42,841 bases of DNA from the IMG/VR virus record IMGVR_UViG_3300045988_007281; one strand, given 5' to 3'. The notes beneath the pieces were generated by a model, which did not search any database, was not told the origin of the DNA, and worked only from the letters and a program-made list of their open reading frames with translations. Source of the DNA: a virus. Position 1 is the first letter of the stretch, and each line of letters begins with the position of its first letter. Below are positions 134-11,775 of the stretch, piece after piece. The translations under genes and the position numbers were made by a program.

Positions 134-346
134 ATGTATAAGCGAGTGAATTTTGAACCGATGGATAAACACCTGTCGGAAAGCATTCGGGGGAAGCTTG
201 AAGAAGCGGAAGCGCTCATCATGCAGCTCCCGGCGGGAAGGAATAGAAGTATCGCCCTGACAAAGTTGGAGGATACAATGCTTCGTGCGAACCTCGCAAT
301 CTCTGACGCGGTTGCGACGAGAAGCGAAAGCGAAACAAAGGACTGA
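134..346 (+). CDS. small soluble helical protein inside the lysis cassette, function unknown
   Basis: 70 aa. SD AAAGGGG lies 8 nt upstream. Looks like a two-helix hairpin with motif RSIALTKLEDTMLRANLAI. Confidence 0.6.
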   Translation: MYKRVNFEPMDKHLSESIRGKLEEAEALIMQLPAGRNRSIALTKLEDTMLRANLAISDAVATRSESETKD

Positions 347-359
347 AAGGAGCATACAT

Positions 360-578
360 ATGGAAAACATCAAGAAGCGGCTCGGCAATCTGCTGAGCGT
401 CAAATCTATCGTCACACTGGTGCTGACGGCGGTATTTGCGTACATGGCAGTCGCCGGGAAAATCTCGCAGGACTTTATGATGGTGTATACCGTCGTGATC
501 GCGTTTTACTTTGGCACACAGAGCCAGAAAGCGCAGGACGCGATTGACAACGCCACGAAGGAGGATGCGCAGAAATGA
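360..578 (+). CDS. holin (two transmembrane segments)
   Basis: Internal ATG of the 285-578 ORF, preceded by GAAAGGAG. 72 aa with TM stretches SIVTLVLTAVFAYMAVAG and FMMVYTVVIAFYFG and a charged C-terminus. ATGA overlap with the endolysin gene. Confidence 0.7.
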   Translation: MENIKKRLGNLLSVKSIVTLVLTAVFAYMAVAGKISQDFMMVYTVVIAFYFGTQSQKAQDAIDNATKEDAQK

Positions 579-1285
579 GCATCAAGATCGGGCAGGCCAG
601 TCTCGGCGAGACGGGCGGCCGCAATCAGCAGCCCGGCAATCAGACCGGGCGGGAGCTGAATATCTCCAACTGGTACAATGGCCGCTGGCTCGGCATCTTG
701 CGCTACAAGAGCCGCAAAAAAGCCGAGCGGGCCGCGCAGACGTGCGAGGCAGCGATTAAAAACCGGAATATCGGTTACGACATGGCCGACAGGAACACGG
801 CGTATGAGGCCGCCAGAGCCGTCGGGTGGGACGTGAGCAGGATCACAAAGCCAGTGGAGACGGACTGCTCCGCGCTCATGATGCTCTGCGCCGTGGCTGC
901 AGGCTGCGCGTCGGTCGAAGCGCTCTACAAAAAGCAGGGCAACAGCTGCACGACATACTGCATGCTGCACGATTGGCCCGCAACGGGCGATTTTGTATTG
1001 CTGACCGGCAGCAAGTATCTGACGACGGACGCCAATCTCCTGCGCGGGGACGTGCTGGTAAGCGAGGGCCATACCGTGATGGCCCTCGAAGATGGAAAAA
1101 ATGCAGAGGAGGAAACAGAAATGGTAGAAAAGAGCAAGATCATCGTGGACGGCAAGGAAGTCGCCGTTGAGCGCATCCTGAAGAACGGCACGAATTACAT
1201 CAAAGTGCGCGATCTGGCCGCCGCGCTGGATCTCGAAGTGAGCAACAAGGGCAATATCGCTGTGCTGAATCACAAGGAAAAGTAA
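575..1285 (+). CDS. endolysin: NlpC/P60- or Amidase_5-like peptidoglycan hydrolase with a C-terminal copper-amine-oxidase-N-like wall-binding domain
   Basis: Motifs IGYDMADRN..DCSALMM..GHTVM (Cys/His hydrolase pattern). C-terminal IIVDGKEVAVERILKNGTNYIKVRDLAAALDLEV. Located directly after the holin. Confidence 0.75.
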   Translation: MSIKIGQASLGETGGRNQQPGNQTGRELNISNWYNGRWLGILRYKSRKKAERAAQTCEAAIKNRNIGYDMADRNTAYEAARAVGWDVSRITKPVETDCSALMMLCAVAAGCASVEALYKKQGNSCTTYCMLHDWPATGDFVLLTGSKYLTTDANLLRGDVLVSEGHTVMALEDGKNAEEETEMVEKSKIIVDGKEVAVERILKNGTNYIKVRDLAAALDLEVSNKGNIAVLNHKEK

Positions 1286-1298
1286 GGAGGCGGGGCGT

Positions 1299-1547
1299 AT
1301 GTCGCCGCAGGCGCGGGCCAAGCTGCCGCCAGAGCTGGGCAGGCTGACCAGAAAGGATATGGAGGCCGTGATCTATCAGGCCAATCTTGGCCGGGAAAAT
1401 GAGAAGATCGCGCAGCTTTATTTTGTCGACAAGCTCCCGCAGGTCGACGTTGCGACAGAGCTGTTCCTGGGCCGCGCCACGGTCCAGCGCCGCCTGCCGG
1501 AGATCATGCGGGAGATGCAGCGGACTTCCAGCAAACTGTACAACTGA
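1299..1547 (+). CDS. sigma-70 region-4-like HTH regulator
   Basis: SD AAGGAGG 8 nt upstream. 82 aa with LTRKDMEAVIY..KIAQLYFVDKLPQVDVATELFLGRATVQRRLPEIMREM, resembling sigma region 4. Confidence 0.55.
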   Translation: MSPQARAKLPPELGRLTRKDMEAVIYQANLGRENEKIAQLYFVDKLPQVDVATELFLGRATVQRRLPEIMREMQRTSSKLYN

Positions 1548-1550
1548 GAT

Positions 1551-1579
1551 AAGCGCCGAGAAATCGGCGCTTATTTTTA
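1551..1579 (+). terminator. rho-independent terminator
   Basis: Perfect 9-bp stem AAGCGCCGA/TCGGCGCTT, GAAA loop, then ATTTTT. Confidence 0.8.
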
Positions 1580-1599
1580 AAAATTTTTGCATTTCCCTC

Positions 1600-1628
1600 T
1601 TGACTTTTGCGCCCAGTGGGCGTATAAT
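1600..1628 (+). promoter_or_regulatory. consensus sigma-A-type promoter P1 with embedded palindromic operator
   Basis: TTGACT (1600-1605), 17-nt spacer, TATAAT (1623-1628), A/T-rich upstream element. Palindrome CGCCCA-G-TGGGCG at 1610-1622 fills the spacer. Confidence 0.8.
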
Positions 1629-1673
1629 AAGACCATAAGATAAAGCAAGGCGAAAGCCGGAAAGAGGTACACC

Positions 1674-1943
1674 ATGGAAACCAAGATCATCAATAACCGC
1701 TACGAACTCATTACTTGCACTGCCATTGCCACCGAGGCTGGCGACACGGAAGTGCAGGACGCGATCCTCTGCCGCACTATGGGCGCCTGCCTGGGCGACG
1801 CATTTTGCGTGTACTTCGGCTACACGCTGGACGATCTGGACGATCTGGATGATCTCGCCGACGCTGACTGCCCTGATTTCAGCGAAGACACGCTTCGCAC
1901 CGTCCGCATCGACGGTCAGCCCATCAGCGCGTACTGCTTCTGA
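1674..1943 (+). CDS. small acidic protein (89 aa), function unknown
   Basis: SD AAGAGG 6 nt upstream. First gene after P1. Contains LDDLDDLDDLADAD. Confidence 0.65.
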   Translation: METKIINNRYELITCTAIATEAGDTEVQDAILCRTMGACLGDAFCVYFGYTLDDLDDLDDLADADCPDFSEDTLRTVRIDGQPISAYCF

Positions 1944-1946
1944 TCG

Positions 1947-2588
1947 ATGGATCGCATCTGTTCTCAGTGCGGTGCGCACTTCGAAGGATTCTCGCGCGAT
2001 ACAAGATGCCAAAAGTGCCGAAGGACTCCAGTGAGAGCCCTTCGCACAAAGGTTTGCGCGGATTGCGGGAAGAGCTATGAAACATATGGTACGCGCTCAT
2101 TTTACTGCCCGGATTGCAGCGAAGCGCGAAAACGGATTGCCCGCGCAGAATGCAGGAAGCGAAAGGCGGCGGGCAAAACCCGCCCCATCGGCTCAAAGGA
2201 TATCTGCGAGCGCTGCGGAGCCGAATACACTGTAGAGGGCGGTTTGCAGCGTTACTGCCCGGACTGCGCCAAAAAGCGCACGAACGAATACTGCCTCGAA
2301 CGCTTTTACAACGGCGGTGCGGAGCAGAGAAGGGCCCGTACTGATTCCAGAGCCATCGCAACAGCGAACTGCATTGTGTGCGGCAAGCCGTTCCCGCTGG
2401 ATGGGGCGCGTGACAAATGCTGCTCGGAGGAATGCCTGCGTATCCGAGCCCGGCAGCTTACTGCGCTGCATTATCAGGAGCATACCGAGCAATACAAAGA
2501 GCGGTGGCAGCAGTGGTATGCAGAAAACAAAGAAGAGTACCTGGAAAAGAAGAAGTCCGCAAAGAAAAGCAAGGAGGAATCCCGATGA
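1947..2588 (+). CDS. multi-zinc-ribbon protein (four CxxC..CxxC units) with a basic coiled C-terminus
   Basis: CSQCG..CQKC, CADCG..CPDC, CERCG..CPDC, CIVCG..CCSEEC. 213 aa. Confidence 0.65.
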   Translation: MDRICSQCGAHFEGFSRDTRCQKCRRTPVRALRTKVCADCGKSYETYGTRSFYCPDCSEARKRIARAECRKRKAAGKTRPIGSKDICERCGAEYTVEGGLQRYCPDCAKKRTNEYCLERFYNGGAEQRRARTDSRAIATANCIVCGKPFPLDGARDKCCSEECLRIRARQLTALHYQEHTEQYKERWQQWYAENKEEYLEKKKSAKKSKEESR

Positions 2589-2926
2589 AACTCACACCCT
2601 TTATTCGTTTCGCCCTCTACACCGAAACCGACGCATACGCCGACCGCGAAGCATACATTTCCGATATGGCGCTATCGAGCGTCTGGGGCGACGCCGAAGA
2701 CGAAGAGATTCCGGCGGAGCGGCTGGCGCTGCTCGGCGGGATCTGGGACGGCACGCACTGCACGATCCCGGAGCTAATCGAGAAATACGGACTGACGCAG
2801 ACCGGCTTTGCGCAGTATTTCAACGTTCCTCTGCGTACCGTGCAGCATTGGTGCCTCGGCGACCGCGCCTGCCCGCCGTATGTGGCCACAATGGCAGCCG
2901 AGATTTTAGCCTTGAACAATCGATAA
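2585..2926 (+). CDS. HTH DNA-binding protein, candidate autoregulator of P1/P2 (Aca-like position)
   Basis: ATGA overlap with the upstream gene. C-terminal GLTQTGFAQYFNVPLRTVQHWCLGDRACPPYV is a typical XRE-like HTH motif. Last gene of the operon. Confidence 0.65.
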   Translation: MKLTPFIRFALYTETDAYADREAYISDMALSSVWGDAEDEEIPAERLALLGGIWDGTHCTIPELIEKYGLTQTGFAQYFNVPLRTVQHWCLGDRACPPYVATMAAEILALNNR

Positions 2927-2932
2927 AAAAGC

Positions 2933-2966
2933 AAGCGCCGGATGGGCTTCCGGCGCTTATTTTTTA
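2933..2966 (+). terminator. rho-independent terminator (A-run upstream, possibly bidirectional)
   Basis: Perfect 10-bp stem AAGCGCCGGA/TCCGGCGCTT, 6-nt loop, then ATTTTTT. Confidence 0.8.
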
Positions 2967-2986
2967 TAACTTTTTTCATTTTCCTC

Positions 2987-3015
2987 TTGACTTCTGCGCC
3001 CAGTGGGCGTATAAT
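2987..3015 (+). promoter_or_regulatory. consensus promoter P2, near-identical duplicate of P1
   Basis: TTGACT (2987-2992), 17-nt spacer, TATAAT (3010-3015). Same palindrome at 2997-3009. 2978-3031 matches 1591-1644 at 52 of 54 positions. Confidence 0.8.
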
Positions 3016-3053
3016 AAGACCATAAGATAAATTAAATGACGGAGGTAAATAAA

Positions 3054-3257
3054 ATGTACGAAATGAACAGGGATATGATGGCCACCATGATCCGCGACTG
3101 GCTGGCAGACAATGCAGAGGAGATGGCCGACCTGGTCGTCGATTACGGCAGTATCCGGTACGACGATGATGAAGAAGAGTGGATCGCCGACGCGCACGAC
3201 GACAGCACCAGCTACACGCTCAAGGCTTGCAGCGATGGTTTCATCCGCATCTGCTGA
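3054..3257 (+). CDS. small highly acidic protein (67 aa), function unknown
   Basis: GGAGG 8 nt upstream of ATG 3054. Sequence ..YDDDEEEWIADAHDDS.. Confidence 0.65.
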   Translation: MYEMNRDMMATMIRDWLADNAEEMADLVVDYGSIRYDDDEEEWIADAHDDSTSYTLKACSDGFIRIC

Positions 3258-3292: not shown

Positions 3293-3832
3293 ATGAACGG
3301 CTATCAGCAAGCGATCCTCATGCTGCTCGGCGTTGATACCTGCGGCAAGTTCCTTGTGCGCTGCGTTGATCGCTGGTACATCGACGCGGTTGCCGAGCTT
3401 TTCCCAACCGCGCCATACCTCCAGCACCGCGCAGATGGAAAGAAAGACTTTTGGGTTGTGAAATCCGCGAAGGTGCATCTTCTCCCGTCCCTCGCCGATG
3501 TGACGGATTGGCAGGGATTTTGCCGCGGTGTGGTGGAGCTGCAAGCTTGCCTTGATCTCTGGCCGCACAAGGTACGTGGCAAGCCCATCAGGACACCACG
3601 GCTGCGGGTTTACGGGCAGCCTGAGCTTTTAACGCAAGTATCCTCGCATTTTCCGGCAGGGCCGAAAAAGCTGCAATTTCGGCGCACGCAGACCGGCGAA
3701 ACGTGCGTCCTGTACTATCAAAGCCCGGCAGAAGTTGCTGATATTCTCGATTCGCTGCACGGCGAACCTTGCAACCACGAACTCTGGGCCCGCTGGGACG
3801 CGCTCATGCAACAAAACAAGCCCGTGGAATAA
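3293..3832 (+). CDS. hypothetical protein (179 aa), possibly a degenerate double-LAGLIDADG-like fold
   Basis: SD AAGGAGG upstream of internal ATG 3293. Segments LMLLGVDTCGKF and GFCRGVVELQACLD loosely resemble the two LAGLIDADG helices. Confidence 0.55.
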   Translation: MNGYQQAILMLLGVDTCGKFLVRCVDRWYIDAVAELFPTAPYLQHRADGKKDFWVVKSAKVHLLPSLADVTDWQGFCRGVVELQACLDLWPHKVRGKPIRTPRLRVYGQPELLTQVSSHFPAGPKKLQFRRTQTGETCVLYYQSPAEVADILDSLHGEPCNHELWARWDALMQQNKPVE

Positions 3833-3850: not shown

Positions 3851-3925
3851 AACCAAATTGATACACAACTGAGGCACAAGAAGCCGCAAAAAAGCCCATA
3901 CTGGACACACAAAGGAGTGTTCGGT

Positions 3926-4309
3926 ATGGGCTTTTCTTATTTTAATCCAAACCCCGCCGGGCTGAAAGTCGGGGACTGCACCGTCCGGGCCATCGCAAAG
4001 GCGACCGGGAAGAGCTGGGACGAGGTGTATATCGGATTGTGCCTGCAAGGACTCATCATGGGAGATCTGCCGAGCGCAAACAGCGTATGGAGCGCTTACC
4101 TCCGGCAGCAGGGCTTTACCCGGAACGTAATCCCGAACACGTGCCCGGACTGCTATACCGTCGCGGATTTCTGCGCAGATCATCCGCGCGGCGTGTATGT
4201 GCTGGCGTTATCAAGCCACGTTGTGTGCGTGGAGGATGGGACGTATTTTGACACGTGGGATTCTGGGAGTGAAATCCCACTGTTTTATTGGGCAAAGGAG
4301 GAAGCATGA
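3926..4309 (+). CDS. papain-like (Cys/His) fold protein, function unknown
   Basis: AAAGGAG 8 nt upstream of internal ATG. Motifs GDCTVRAIAKA ... SSHVVCVEDGTYFDTWDSG. Confidence 0.55.
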   Translation: MGFSYFNPNPAGLKVGDCTVRAIAKATGKSWDEVYIGLCLQGLIMGDLPSANSVWSAYLRQQGFTRNVIPNTCPDCYTVADFCADHPRGVYVLALSSHVVCVEDGTYFDTWDSGSEIPLFYWAKEEA

Positions 4310-7127: not shown

Positions 7128-7164
7128 CAAAAAATAGGGGAGTCCCCTCGCATTGCGCTGAATC

Positions 7165-7186
7165 TGTAGCATACAATGTAGCATAC
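7165..7186 (+). repeat. two tandem copies of TGTAGCATAC (candidate integrase arm-type sites, P arm)
   Basis: Exact 10-mers at 7165-7174 and 7177-7186. Confidence 0.6.
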
Positions 7187-7267
7187 GGAAAATAATTTTA
7201 TGTTACAGAGCGTGTCATAACTTGATCTTTTGCTTTTTGAAAATACGCAGAAAATAGGGTGAAAAGC

Positions 7268-7312
7268 ATAAAAAAGTACCGATTTTAGATTTAAAACATC
7301 TAAAATCGGTAC
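7268..7312 (-). terminator. terminator directly downstream of the tRNA-like 3' end (minus strand)
   Basis: Perfect 15-bp stem GTACCGATTTTAGAT/ATCTAAAATCGGTAC (7276-7312), followed on the minus strand by T6. Confidence 0.7.
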
Positions 7313-7314
7313 TT

Positions 7315-7379
7315 TGGCGCGGAAGGAGAGATTTGAACTCTCGCGCGCTTTTTAGACGCCTACTCCCTTAGCAGGGGAG
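7315..7379 (-). other. attP core candidate: 3' ~65 nt of tRNA-Ser(GCU), from anticodon arm to CCA
   Basis: Minus strand reads CTCCC-CTGCTAA-GGGAG, a long variable region, GAGAG-TTCAAAT-CTCTC, then CTTCCGC-G-CCA. No D arm or 5' acceptor strand upstream. Confidence 0.7.
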
Positions 7380-7426
7380 AAAAACCCATTGAAAACACTG
7401 GGGAAATTGGCGTTTGTAACATATTT

Positions 7427-7436
7427 TGTAGCATAC
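7427..7436 (+). repeat. third copy of TGTAGCATAC (P' arm), with a degenerate copy TGTAACATA at 7415-7423
   Basis: Exact 10-mer, same orientation as 7165-7186, on the other side of the core. Confidence 0.55.
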
Positions 7437-7441
7437 AGAAT

Positions 7442-8545
7442 TTACTCTGGCGAGTCGTTTTGCAACTGATTTACGGCATCGACCATGCCTTTCATGTCCG
7501 GATGTACGTACCGTTGGGTAGTGGTTATCTTCGTGTGGCGCATGATTTCCTTGATCGTAAACGGATCAATGTTTTTCATTGCGAGGGCTGTAGCGGTTGT
7601 ATGGCGGCATGAGTAAGGTGGTAGCTTTTGCACTCCGGCAAGCTCCAAACACTCATAATATCTCTTGTAAAAATTATCTTTGTTTATGCAGCAGATATTT
7701 CCGACGCGCGATTTGCTTTCTTCGCATAGTTCATGCAGCACCGGCGCAACGAAATCCGGGAAGACCATAGGCGTTTCCTTCCGCTTCTTTGTCTTTATGC
7801 CGCCTCGGACGATCTCATTCTTTTCAAAGTCAATCATATCTTTCTTGAGTTTTAGAAGCTCACCGGGCATCATGCCGGTATAAATCATCGTTAAAATAAA
7901 CCCAATGAAGTGGTCTTTTGCATACGCTTCCCATAGCTTTTTTACGTCGGTGTCGGTGAACGGCTCCGGCGTTTTTTCTTCAAGCTCCGGAAGCTTTATG
8001 TACTTTGCAAGATTCACGGTTGTTTGCTTTTCTGCGATTGCGAGGTTATAACAGTGGGAGAGGACAGTTTTCATATCTTTCCGCGTGTAATAGGTGCTGG
8101 CGTTGCGGTCGATAACATCCTGTATCTGCGCGATGGTAAGCGCGTCGATCTCACGGTCGGCGATTTCTCTCATGCGCTCGAATGCCTTTTCCGCCGCGCC
8201 CTGACGATCAGCCGATAAGGATAGATAATCCCCACGCAGATATGTTTTGTAGTATTCTCTGAGAGTGGGGCTTCGCTGCTCTTCCTTCGGAGGGTTTGCG
8301 GCATATTGGAGGGCGGTGCGCTTTGATGTAAACCCGCCTTTTGTTCGCATCTTTTGCCGAAGCTTGTCGTTCTCGTCTAGGTAAGTTCTTTCTGTCCAAC
8401 GCGCCGTCCACGTCTTCCCTCGCTGGTAAGCGCTTCCTTGCCCGTTCCCGCGCGTCCGGCTTCGCCGCGCTTCCTGTTTTTTCCCGCACCAGCAACAGTA
8501 GGGCGCGCCGTCTGGAATTTCTTTTTTACACTTGATGCACTCCAT
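7442..8545 (-). CDS. int: tyrosine recombinase (phage integrase) with an N-terminal zinc ribbon
   Basis: CIKCKKEIPDGAPYCCWCG at the N-terminus. C-terminal SCRHTTATAL..HTKITTTQRYVH (R..H-x-x-R..Y catalytic pattern). ATG 8545 preceded by GGAGG. Confidence 0.9.
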   Translation of the reverse strand: MECIKCKKEIPDGAPYCCWCGKKQEARRSRTRGNGQGSAYQRGKTWTARWTERTYLDENDKLRQKMRTKGGFTSKRTALQYAANPPKEEQRSPTLREYYKTYLRGDYLSLSADRQGAAEKAFERMREIADREIDALTIAQIQDVIDRNASTYYTRKDMKTVLSHCYNLAIAEKQTTVNLAKYIKLPELEEKTPEPFTDTDVKKLWEAYAKDHFIGFILTMIYTGMMPGELLKLKKDMIDFEKNEIVRGGIKTKKRKETPMVFPDFVAPVLHELCEESKSRVGNICCINKDNFYKRYYECLELAGVQKLPPYSCRHTTATALAMKNIDPFTIKEIMRHTKITTTQRYVHPDMKGMVDAVNQLQNDSPE

Positions 8546-9101
8546 GTTTCCCTCCACGTTCTTTTCGGATCGCGTAGAAAGTAATTGCCGAAGCCAGAAC
8601 TGAACCTACGATCAGGGCGATACACGCCCATGCGGTTACGGACAAGTCTCCATCTCGAATGAGGCCTGCGTTCCGACTCTGCGCATCCGTCACAAGACAG
8701 GCAACCAGGGAAAAGGAGAGCAGCAAACAAAATAGGGCGAGAACGTAACACATTGTATGTGTAGACCTTATCTGCGCGCTCTGTAGGGCTGCTGCTGCCT
8801 CCAGCTTGGCGTTTTCAAGCTCGACACGATGGATCTGCTTGGTCAGCTTTTCCGGGCTTCCGACGGGATTCTCAAGGCCGAACAGCTCGTCGAGCGACAG
8901 ACCAAGCGCTTTACATATTGCGGCCGAGTTATAAAGCCGTGGATCCGCTTGTGTTCCGGCATATAATCGGCTCACGGTGGAGAAGGAAACTCCGGACTTT
9001 TCCGACAGCTCCTCCAGCGTCATTCCGCTGCGATCTTTTGCATTTCTGATTTTCCCATGATACGCGCCGATAAACGGCGCGAGTTCCTGTATTGCGGACA
9101 T
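8526..9101 (-). CDS. membrane-anchored XRE-family HTH regulator (HTH + coiled coil + 2 TM)
   Basis: GGAGG 7 nt upstream of ATG 9101. MTLEELSEKSGVSFSTVSRLYAG HTH. TM stretches MCYVLALFCLLLSFSLVACLV and AWACIALIVGSVLASAITFYAI. The 3' end overlaps the int start by 20 nt. Confidence 0.7.
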   Translation of the reverse strand: MSAIQELAPFIGAYHGKIRNAKDRSGMTLEELSEKSGVSFSTVSRLYAGTQADPRLYNSAAICKALGLSLDELFGLENPVGSPEKLTKQIHRVELENAKLEAAAALQSAQIRSTHTMCYVLALFCLLLSFSLVACLVTDAQSRNAGLIRDGDLSVTAWACIALIVGSVLASAITFYAIRKERGGKHGVHQV

Positions 9102-9397
9102 TGGTGCGCCTCCAATCGCAGATTGTGTTGTTATTTCCTGCATTTTCCGTGTGAAAACGCAAACTATGAGAAGAAAACGCAAAACTCGGGCTTTTTTTAC
9201 AAACATTATCTGGTACAATGAAAACGTAGCAGATAGTTCCTGAGCCCTGCATCTGCTGAAATGGCCCCACCGTATGTTCCAGATACGATGGGGCCGGTCA
9301 AACCAAATATTATATCAAATCATCAGTCCCATAAACTGTACACCATTGTATTCCTGATTCCCAAAAATAACGCGGTCTGTTTGTTCATAATACCATG

Positions 9398-11334: not shown

Positions 11335-11363
11335 TTGACAGTTGAGAATGTTTGATGTATTAT
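11335..11363 (+). promoter_or_regulatory. rightward promoter candidate
   Basis: TTGACA, 17-nt spacer, TATTAT. Confidence 0.6.
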
Positions 11364-11390: not shown

Positions 11391-11718
11391 AGACAAGACC
11401 CAAGCAAATCAACGCTTGCGCCAATGCTAATGTGTTTCTCGCAAATTCATAGTAGCACAAACAGTAAACAATTTCAACAACAAATTTCAAAAGTTGACTG
11501 CGGCGAAAAGAAAAGCCGCCCGTGGTTCGTTCACGAGCGGTTTCCCCCAGAGTTGTTTACCAGAACGCGCTGCACAGGATGGTCGTCTGCATTACTTCGC
11601 ATCCGTCCGAATTGGTAGAGTTCTTTCCACCGGCTTGGCAATGCCATCCTGACACAAAACGAACTTACGCTTCTATGACGCGCCGCTCACTTTGGCAGTT
11701 CTGGCGCTGCCCCTTGCC

Positions 11719-11775
11719 CTAACGCATCACGCCGTTTCTTTGGTCTGGAACTGGCAAGTTCAAAAGTTTGGTCAT
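11719..11775 (-). CDS. 18-codon upstream/leader ORF (MTKLLNLPVPDQRNGVMR)
   Basis: AGGAGG 7 nt upstream of ATG 11775, about 35 nt downstream of the minus-strand promoter at 11815-11844. Stops at TAG 11719-11721. Confidence 0.35.
   Translation of the reverse strand: MTKLLNLPVPDQRNGVMR

Follow-up and report, generated by a model that had tools for sequence, protein, structure and literature searches.

A putative Aca10-type self-limiting regulon with exchangeable small genes in temperate gut phages

Introduction

What kind of unit is the gene cluster that a temperate siphovirus-like phage of the human gut, IMG/VR record IMGVR_UViG_3300045988_007281, carries between its lysis genes and its integrase? 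The whole stretch analysed, 42,841 nucleotides long and referred to here as the window, had been read in an initial annotation as holding at positions 1551-2926 an acr/aca-like operon, that is, a candidate anti-defence locus whose last gene, coding for a helix-turn-helix (HTH) protein, would repress its own strong, palindrome-bearing promoter. The three proteins that it described, an acidic one of 89 residues (acid89), one of 213 residues with four zinc ribbons (ZnR213) and one of 113 residues ending in an XRE-type HTH (HTH113), are all encoded where it placed them, behind a near-consensus promoter (P1) that has the palindrome it reported, and the accessory position that it assigned to the module holds as well, the operon lying after the endolysin and before the integrase. 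The range that it gave does contain these elements, yet it leaves out the terminator of the operon (2933-2958) and a second operon (P2, 2987-3832; genes acid67 and p179) that stands under the same operator (Table 1).

Aca regulators and the palindromes in their promoters are already well known; the question is thus how far this locus can be tied to them, and what its remaining genes may do. The anatomy of the module, the link between operator and recognition helix, the probable homology to Aca10 and the shuffling of the cargo come from sequence comparison. On these grounds the regulatory half of the acr/aca reading is strongly supported, namely by the similarity to Aca10, by the co-variation of helix and operator, and by the swapping of cargo genes. 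We regard it as fairly probable that the module serves its temperate phage as a self-limiting accessory regulon of the Aca10 type with a counter-defence payload; for its parts, a self-repressing circuit of HTH113 on P1 and P2 appears very likely, and for an anti-defence role of the payload the scales are evenly balanced.

Results

Operator sequence and recognition helix co-vary

P1 and P2 lie in the two copies of a 71-nt direct repeat (1574-1644 and 2961-3031, 93% identical) and match the sigma-70 promoter consensus in at least 11 of 12 positions, as only two other sites in the entire window do. The spacer of each holds the palindrome CGCCCA-G-TGGGCG, which has no further copy in the window; these two sites, O1 and O2, are the predicted binding sites of an HTH113 dimer. 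HTH113 is the last gene of the P1 operon and the P2 operon is without a regulator of its own; we propose that O2 places the latter under HTH113 as well.

The comparison set was built around HTH113, whose homologs form 87 clusters, all of them metagenomic; it comprises about 75 loci (14 found by exact protein look-up and DNA similarity, 62 from IMG/VR, and one in a metagenome-assembled genome, MAG), and about 70 of the related loci keep the P1-type promoter. In a comparison of 37 distinct promoter sequences, the palindrome has arms that are 98.1% complementary, and two half-site positions vary, yielding the classes CGCCCA, CGCTCA, CACGCA, and CACCCA; wherever a cell deviates from the commonest pair at these two positions, both arms are altered (22 of 22), and none of 500 shuffles attained the observed values. 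It is this comparison across promoters, not the window alone, that shows the palindrome to exceed chance; the palindrome is under selection.

The recognition motif of HTH113 reads RTVQ-H-WC-L-G-D-R-A-CP in the window (generally RTVQxWCxGxRxCP), and its variable residues follow the half-site: HLDA accompanies CGCCCA, the class of the window; GLEA or GIET accompanies CGCTCA; DARG, DGRG, or DGRS accompanies CACGCA; and NGQE accompanies CACCCA. This rule is obeyed by all 84 promoter-protein pairs, 47 of them unique, with zero exceptions. It was first seen on an initial promoter set and then held in three loci that the pattern of that set had missed (the L063 group, L055, and L022); it also holds for a fusion protein only 32% identical to HTH113 (L001), whose helix is RRTLEDWEGDRRSCP and whose operator is CCACGCA-T-TGCGTGG. 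Two kinds of recombinant show that relatedness alone fails to explain the link: one protein (L028) has a window-type N-terminal half, but a D..R helix, and stands behind CACGCA, and another group (L072-74) has the N-terminus of the L013 type, but a G..E helix, and stands behind CGCTCA. Where a locus has two promoters, its operators never differ in class (15 of 15). Taken together, these patterns make it highly probable that HTH113 binds O1 and O2.

The other candidate for the operator-binding protein was sig82, a sigma-70 region-4-like protein encoded downstream of the endolysin. It was rejected as the determinant of specificity because it is 100% identical across loci of differing operator class. 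Within this phage group, sig82 always lies directly 3' of the endolysin, whichever strand holds the lysis genes.

HTH113 as a probable extended relative of Aca10

Aca10 of Pseudomonas citronellolis binds as a dimer to AATACGCTCA-T-TGAGCGTATT, which overlaps both the -35 and the -10 element of the acrIC7-acrIC6-aca10 promoter, with ATACGCTCATTGAGCGTAT as its minimal site; R34 and R44 matter for the binding of DNA, R44 being the most critical, and the exchange G49Y renders the protein monomeric (PMC9410881). An operator of this form, ATACGCTCA-N-TGAGCGTAT, lies over the -35/-10 region in the same place and register in HTH113 loci. The class-B promoters of relatives read TTGACTTTT-ACGCTCATTGAGCGTAT-AAT, sharing 18 of the 19 bases of the Aca10 operator, and their right arm runs into the -10 hexamer, as in Pseudomonas; the operator of the window, a symmetric CGCCCA variant, shares 14 of the 19, and that of a second group of gut phages all 19. 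That the window palindrome is an Aca10-type operator is thus strongly supported by its sequence.

The proteins themselves appear to be related more distantly. The HTH113 family aligns with seven proteobacterial Aca10 proteins at 94.2% probability in hhalign (E-value 1.2e-7, over 37 columns only), and HTH113 with Aca10 in pairwise BLASTP at an E-value of 8e-7; the best single-sequence match in the PDB is Aca10 (7XI5; E-value 0.32), and the best NCBIfam model, though below threshold, is one and the same for the two proteins. In the hhalign alignment, R84 and R94 of HTH113 fall on R34 and R44 of Aca10; among 55 homologs, R84 is invariant and R94 nearly so. Family searches with HTH113 yielded a match to phrog_25567 (3.7e-11) and one to Pfam HTH_3 (0.022), the latter below threshold. 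Its AlphaFold2 (AF2) model, with a predicted local distance difference test (pLDDT) score of 93, comprises a three-helix N-terminal domain (residues 1-57) and the XRE HTH (61-111). The fold comparison that the initial annotation had proposed as a check covered this model and that of acid89: for HTH113, Foldseek returned generic XRE folds, none at an E-value of 0.001 or better, with the N-terminal domain unmatched, and Aca10 (7xi5) had the highest sequence identity among the listed matches; for acid89, it returned only the protein's own ortholog. Aca10 itself is a single-domain protein of about 65 residues that dimerizes via helix 4 (G49, E52), an arrangement that HTH113, with its conserved additional domain, does not share. 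HTH113 is therefore best described, as far as sequence allows, as an extended, specificity-switched relative of Aca10 rather than as a typical family member.

When IMG/VR was scanned for ACGCTCANTGAGCGTAT, 70 stretches of 38-70% GC were returned. Of the sites with a promoter context, between the -35 and -10 elements, most are followed by one to three small genes and then by an HTH of the RT.Q.W..G.R type, which is either Aca10 itself or one of a graded series of intermediates that bridge the Aca10 and HTH113 groups. The series includes a P. citronellolis-type locus encoding Aca10, of the acrIC7-acrIC6-aca10 type (L094), other proteobacterial Aca10 proteins (L080, L093, L095, L107, and L139), a low-GC form of 64 residues (L102), and, in the second group of gut phages, proteins of 105-130 residues that are 33-44% identical to HTH113 along its length. 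Real Acr genes or homologs of them occur in the operator-marked proteobacterial loci (L094 and L139): in L139 (IMGVR_UViG_2728369079_000006), the Aca10 operator and an Aca10 homolog accompany a first gene that is an AcrIF11/H3 homolog, matching the 'H3 protein' 8dwq in the PDB at an E-value of 1.4e-98 and, distantly, AcrIF11 (6kyf; E-value 1.1e-4).

The second gut-phage group (L086, L099, L100, L103, L124, and others) has the exact 19-bp Aca10 site in its promoter and, about 30 nt upstream of the -35 element, a further similar inverted repeat, GTGCTCAATGAGCAC or ATGCTCATTGAGCAC; by analogy, these two-repeat promoters recall those of some Aca families.

Leaders and terminators

The leader between promoter and first gene, CCATAAGATAAA..., remains constant in relatives ahead of unrelated first genes. 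RNA-level control of the kind reported for Aca2 was considered and is unsupported, because folding of the leaders shows no structure; an Rfam scan of the module region also gave no RNA family. Upstream, a terminator ends the preceding late/lysis transcript and insulates P1, and the same hairpin precedes the promoter in relatives.

At the end of the P2 unit, the hairpin at 3890-3935 holds the ribosome-binding site of the next gene (3926-4309, phrog_3754) in its loop and the ATG of that gene in its 3' arm; it is kept in relatives such as L004 and may act as a terminator and a translational gate at once.

Cargo genes are exchanged behind a constant regulator

Throughout the related loci, promoter, leader, and HTH113 are constant and the genes between them are swapped among at least 11 families. 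The variable first slot holds acid89, acid67, s72, s91, or s65; the one in the middle is empty or is taken by ZnR213, a fusion of 236 residues (ZnR-HTH236), m125, m119, p179, or CxC214. Partners shuffle freely: acid89 is seen beside four different middle genes, and four different first genes accompany p179, so that obligate pairs of a small and a middle gene, in the manner of toxins and antitoxins, are rejected. The two genes that form the P2 operon in the window occur within the HTH113 operon in other phages, acid67 in its first slot. Two features of acr-aca loci are present: one operon combines an HTH gene with a strong promoter that contains an inverted repeat, and one aca-like gene is accompanied by differing upstream genes among related elements. 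The site of the module is of two kinds, either on the same strand after endolysin and sig82, or converging on sig82 beside a serine recombinase; the module therefore moves between phage backbones. Such a pattern marks an accessory hot spot whose regulator is conserved.

The equivalent slot of another phage (L002, MT835513.1; minus strand, ~5464) has a different palindrome promoter, CGCTAATATTAGCG, with the spacer palindrome TTGACAACGCGCTAATATTAGCGTATAAT, followed by a 128-aa gene and then by an XRE HTH of 93 aa that is Cys-rich and has no relation to HTH113; the same design is thus used in the same genomic slot by a second family of regulators.

Cargo proteins and the zinc-ribbon fusion network

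The initial annotation could liken none of the cargo to a nameable function, and this was borne out: in searches of Pfam, PHROGs, NCBIfam, PADLOC, and the PDB with the five operon proteins of the window, and of Pfam with the other representatives, no cargo protein matched a known defence or anti-defence family by sequence. More specifically, PADLOC models gave no meaningful match among nine proteins of the region (these five and four neighbors); acid89, acid67, ZnR213, and p179 found nothing significant in the PDB by sequence or profile; the cargo shows no similarity to AcrIC6 and AcrIC7 of the Aca10 type locus or to AcrIF11; and a Pfam scan of the other first-slot and middle-slot representatives returned only sub-threshold zinc-ribbon and HTH matches, as did that of ZnR213 for zinc ribbons. 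Homologs of acid89 fall into 35 clusters, all within this phage group, and those of ZnR213 into 15. The AF2 model of acid89 is rich in β-structure (pLDDT 78); its only Foldseek match in the PDB and BFVD, the ortholog mentioned above, comes from BFVD, the PDB offering no fold match. The protein is a candidate inhibitor. As the cargo is without known relatives, the case for the function of the payload is therefore made from the architecture of the module.

ZnR213 stands apart from the first-slot genes. Its core, made up of ribbon 1, a CxxCGKPF...CCSxxC unit, and the helical tail, is fused in L001 to the C-terminal two-thirds of an HTH113-like protein, which is the sole HTH of that operon, and in another protein (P0140) to a p179 domain; other members of the p179 family are fused to further zinc ribbons, to a CxC module, or to an HTH113-like HTH, and in the second gut-phage group CxC-AP2-ZnR proteins follow the HTH gene. 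The L001 fusion, of 230 residues, is a Rosetta-stone link between the second and third genes of the window. Because of these fusions to the HTH and to p179, ZnR213 is perhaps not free cargo, and its role as an independent inhibitor, as the initial annotation had it, is probably to be given up. ZnR, p179, CxC, and HTH form one domain network, with only the small, mostly acidic first-slot genes acting as free payload. Since Acr and Aca are known to occur as a single protein (AcrIIA1, AcrIIA13, AcrIIA15, and AcrIF24, as cited in PMC9410881), the fusions of ZnR213 are compatible with a role as effector and with one as co-regulator alike.

The module of L001 (MT835551.1, 5155-6240, minus strand) is the same but inverted, with a one-base shift of its CCACGCA-T-TGCGTGG promoter palindrome and, behind it, an acidic gene of 95 aa and then the fusion gene.

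Discussion

The circuit that we infer covers repression, its timing, the mode of dimerization, and the anti-defence role of the cargo. Upon genome entry or induction, host RNA polymerase would fire P1 and P2, and the unstructured leaders would allow a burst of the first-slot proteins (acid89 and acid67) and of the mid-size proteins (ZnR213 and p179). HTH113, encoded last in P1, would accumulate and dimerize, probably via its extra N-terminal three-helix domain; the dimer would then occupy CGCCCA-G-TGGGCG, which fills the spacer between the -35 and -10 elements of both promoters, and occlude RNA polymerase, so that expression of both operons drops to a low level set by the circuit itself. An exchangeable payload would be constituted by the small acidic first-slot proteins, most likely inhibitors of host defence, and ZnR213 and p179 zinc-binding or DNA-binding-type partners of the regulator, either co-regulators or DNA-directed effectors. 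A further point in favor of this reading is an Acb2/Tad1-family gene 1.3 kb upstream.

The closest known system is the acrIC7-acrIC6-aca10 operon (PDB 7XI5; Lee et al., NAR 2022, PMC9410881), with which the locus shares an XRE HTH as the product of the final gene, variability of the upstream genes, and a palindrome that has one base at its center, occupies the whole -35/-10 spacer and extends into the -10 hexamer. It differs in the phylum of the host (Firmicute gut phages here, Proteobacteria there), in the N-terminal domain of the regulator, in its specificity class (an H..D helix and a CGCCCA half-site), in having one regulator for two promoters, and in its cargo. The acrIIA1 loci of Listeria are alike in belonging to temperate phages of Firmicutes and in coding for a two-domain HTH protein that represses its own strong promoter via a palindrome, among variable small neighbors; in AcrIIA1, however, the HTH is N-terminal, in HTH113 C-terminal, the two share no sequence similarity, and there is no known Cas9-directed activity for HTH113. 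A further likeness is that the acrIIA1 accessory locus of Listeria prophages adjoins the lysis genes at the end of the prophage. AcrIIA1 has been described as a bifunctional HTH protein, both Acr and Aca (Osuna et al. 2020, as cited in PMC8008677 and PMC9410881).

Several points weigh against the reading as an Aca10-type counter-defence regulon. The profile match of HTH113 to Aca10 in the PDB has an E-value of 0.033, and two generic XRE proteins score better. HTH113 has 113 residues and an extra domain, and its Tyr99, at least 90% conserved among the 55 homologs, aligns with G49 of Aca10, where the exchange to tyrosine abolishes the dimer. A single large dataset of gut viromes supplied most of the related loci, which limits independent sampling. 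The cargo is unlike any known anti-defence protein by sequence, and the fold search, made for acid89 only, was also empty; the mid-size proteins belong to a fusion network with DNA-binding domains, which suits regulators at least as well as inhibitors. Finally, a negatively autoregulated consensus promoter in a prophage would give steady low expression, which suits genes for lysogenic conversion or exclusion equally well.

This last point leads to the alternative of an autoregulated moron or lysogenic-conversion cassette, in which the same circuit would drive a payload that acts in the lysogen, on superinfection exclusion, competing phages, or host physiology. Its position is that of a classical moron, bracketed by terminators between lysis genes and integrase, negative autoregulation would keep its expression constant and low, and the four operator specificities resemble heteroimmunity groups; however, PADLOC found no meaningful match among the operon products and their neighbors, the type of regulator and operator is that found with proven Acr genes, and small, acidic, fast-swapped first genes are typical of inhibitors, so that we consider such a cassette unlikely. 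The zinc ribbons suggest a different comparison, with a split regulatory or toxin-antitoxin-like unit of the MqsA type, in which ZnR213 and HTH113 would serve as antitoxin or regulator and the small first gene as their toxin or modulator partner. MqsA-type antitoxins (PF15731, TIGR03830) share with relatives of the window the zinc-ribbon/HTH fusion and with the module the palindrome in their own promoter; such fusions exist here, ZnR-HTH236 matching Pfam MqsA_antitoxin at an E-value of 6.8e-5, that of L001 is the only HTH of its operon, Aca10 matches the MqsA-type HTH model TIGR03830, and the order of genes, small first and HTH last, is that of mqsRA, the model matches all being below threshold. 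Against this, the ribbons and the HTH of the window are encoded by separate genes, with four ribbons where MqsA has one; the first-slot proteins, mostly acidic and from at least five unrelated families, pair freely and interchangeably, unlike cognate toxin-antitoxin pairs; several operons lack any zinc-ribbon gene; and no match to RelE/MqsR-like or other toxins was found. A unit of this kind is improbable.

The shuffling could have yet another cause, if the mid-size genes were relics or relatives of free-standing selfish genes of the homing-endonuclease type, with their own mobility behind the exchange. Fusion partners in the p179 family include an HNH-associated repeat, NinG, CxC modules neighboring AP2, and HTH domains, there is a weak profile match to the homing endonuclease 2dch (E-value 0.14), and two putative motifs of LAGLIDADG-like form may be read in the sequence; that similarity to homing endonucleases is non-significant, however, no nuclease domain or catalytic motif was detected in ZnR213, p179, or CxC214, and the small first genes shuffle as well, without any such features. 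We regard this origin as very improbable.

If the Aca10-type regulon is taken as the frame, the four pairs of operator and helix may reflect an arms race over trans-repression, in which a resident prophage or a host decoy repressor silences the counter-defence operon of a related incoming phage and lays it open to host immunity; this is a speculative and rather unlikely extension. On this view, phages would escape by switching operator and helix together, and the zinc-ribbon and p179 partners, repeatedly found fused to the repressor, would render repression conditional, as sensors or co-repressors. Were this so, a natural orthogonal set of repressors and operators would control more than ten unknown anti-defence families in phages of gut Clostridia.

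New here are the occurrence of the Aca10 operator-regulator pair in phages of gut Firmicutes, the N-terminal domain, the four co-varying classes, the control of two promoters by one regulator, the zinc-ribbon/p179 fusion network, and the uncharacterized cargo families; a literature search found no description of this module, and for phages that infect gut commensals like Faecalibacterium it found no report of Aca regulators or of proteins against host defence. Screens by guilt-by-association of the AcaFinder type need a known Acr neighbor (PMC9765179) and would therefore miss this locus. The operator sequence is shared by Pseudomonas elements and Clostridia phages, even though the protein has diverged almost past recognition by sequence. 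The Aca10-type palindrome promoter is a marker, at the level of DNA, that finds such operons across phyla. The link to Aca10 through the operator also places more than ten small ORFan families on a shortlist of candidate inhibitors of the defences of a major gut bacterium, and it offers a natural four-state specificity series, one or two helix residues against two half-site positions, that could serve as a set of orthogonal repressors.

Genome setting

Table 1. Features of the module and of its surroundings in the window.
Feature	Position	Strand	Remarks
70-aa Acb2/Tad1 hairpin-domain protein	134-346	+	Pfam, 34.3 bits vs gathering threshold of 27, E-value 2.8e-8
Endolysin	575-1285		Pfam ELLD, 1.2e-59
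sig82	1299-1547	+	82 aa, sigma-70 region-4-like
Terminator upstream of P1	1552-1573	+	aagcgccga-gaaa-tcggcgctt, then T-run; read from sequence
Promoter P1	1600-1628	+	TTGACT-17 nt-TATAAT, sigma-70 type, 11/12 consensus positions
Operator O1 (predicted)	1610-1622		P1 spacer
5' leader	1629-1673	+	CCATAAGATAAAGCAAGGCGAAAGCCGG..., ends in ribosome-binding site; folding z-score -0.45
acid89	1674-1943	+	Acidic ORFan, isoelectric point (pI) 4.05; 19 D/E vs 5 K/R; contains LDDLDDLDDLADAD
ZnR213	1947-2588	+	19 Cys, basic (pI 9.3), charged helical tail; Cys4 ribbons C5/C8/C21/C24, C37/C40/C54/C57, C87/C90/C104/C107, C142/C145/C158-159/C163
HTH113	2585-2926	+	C-terminal XRE HTH; start overlaps ZnR213 stop as ATGA
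P1-operon terminator	2933-2958	+	10-bp stem, then T-run
Promoter P2	2987-3015	+	Copy of P1, TTGACT-17 nt-TATAAT, 11/12 consensus positions
Operator O2 (predicted)	2997-3009		P2 spacer; same as O1
acid67	3054-3257	+	67-aa acidic ORFan, pI 4.05; first gene of P2
p179	3293-3832	+	179 aa; P2 operon
Hairpin ending P2 unit	3890-3935	+	Strong; 19-bp stem, -30.5 kcal/mol, z-score -6.8
Conserved protein, 252 aa	5075-5833	+	phrog_16490; Gly/Trp- and Cys-rich
Conserved protein, 139 aa	5962-6381	+	phrog_20016
Tyrosine integrase	7442-8557	-
CI-like repressor	8526-9218	-
Promoter-like site near FuFi-1	11335-11363	+	11/12 consensus match
FuFi-1 RNA, full-length	11510-11726	-	Rfam RF02986, 100.6 bits vs gathering score of 59.6
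Promoter-like site near FuFi-1	13036-13008	-	12/12 consensus match

At the level of DNA, the relatives of the window are faecal phage contigs only, together with a short match to Faecalibacterium phage Aster; the host is probably a gut Firmicute, Faecalibacterium or another member of the Oscillospiraceae. The scan of GTDB genomes matched a single MAG labelled Bacteroidales, a label that is probably a binning artefact, and the assignment of the host therefore stays an indirect one.

The 70-aa Acb2/Tad1 protein is encoded just upstream of holin and endolysin and weakly matches 'Acb2 homolog 43' in the PDB (9ptq); judged by its domain, it may serve as a cyclic-nucleotide sponge that counters CBASS or Thoeris, and it does not depend on P1 and P2. 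The FuFi-1 RNA sits in the early/lysogeny region. The conserved proteins of 252 and 139 residues are placed between the module and the integrase, and next to the latter lies a probable attP region (7130-7440), which contains direct repeats (7165-7190 and 7415-7440) and, between them, a perfect 18-nt inverted repeat (7273-7290 and 7298-7315); several faecal phage contigs, and Faecalibacterium phage Aster as well, share about 86% identity with the segment 7314-7384.

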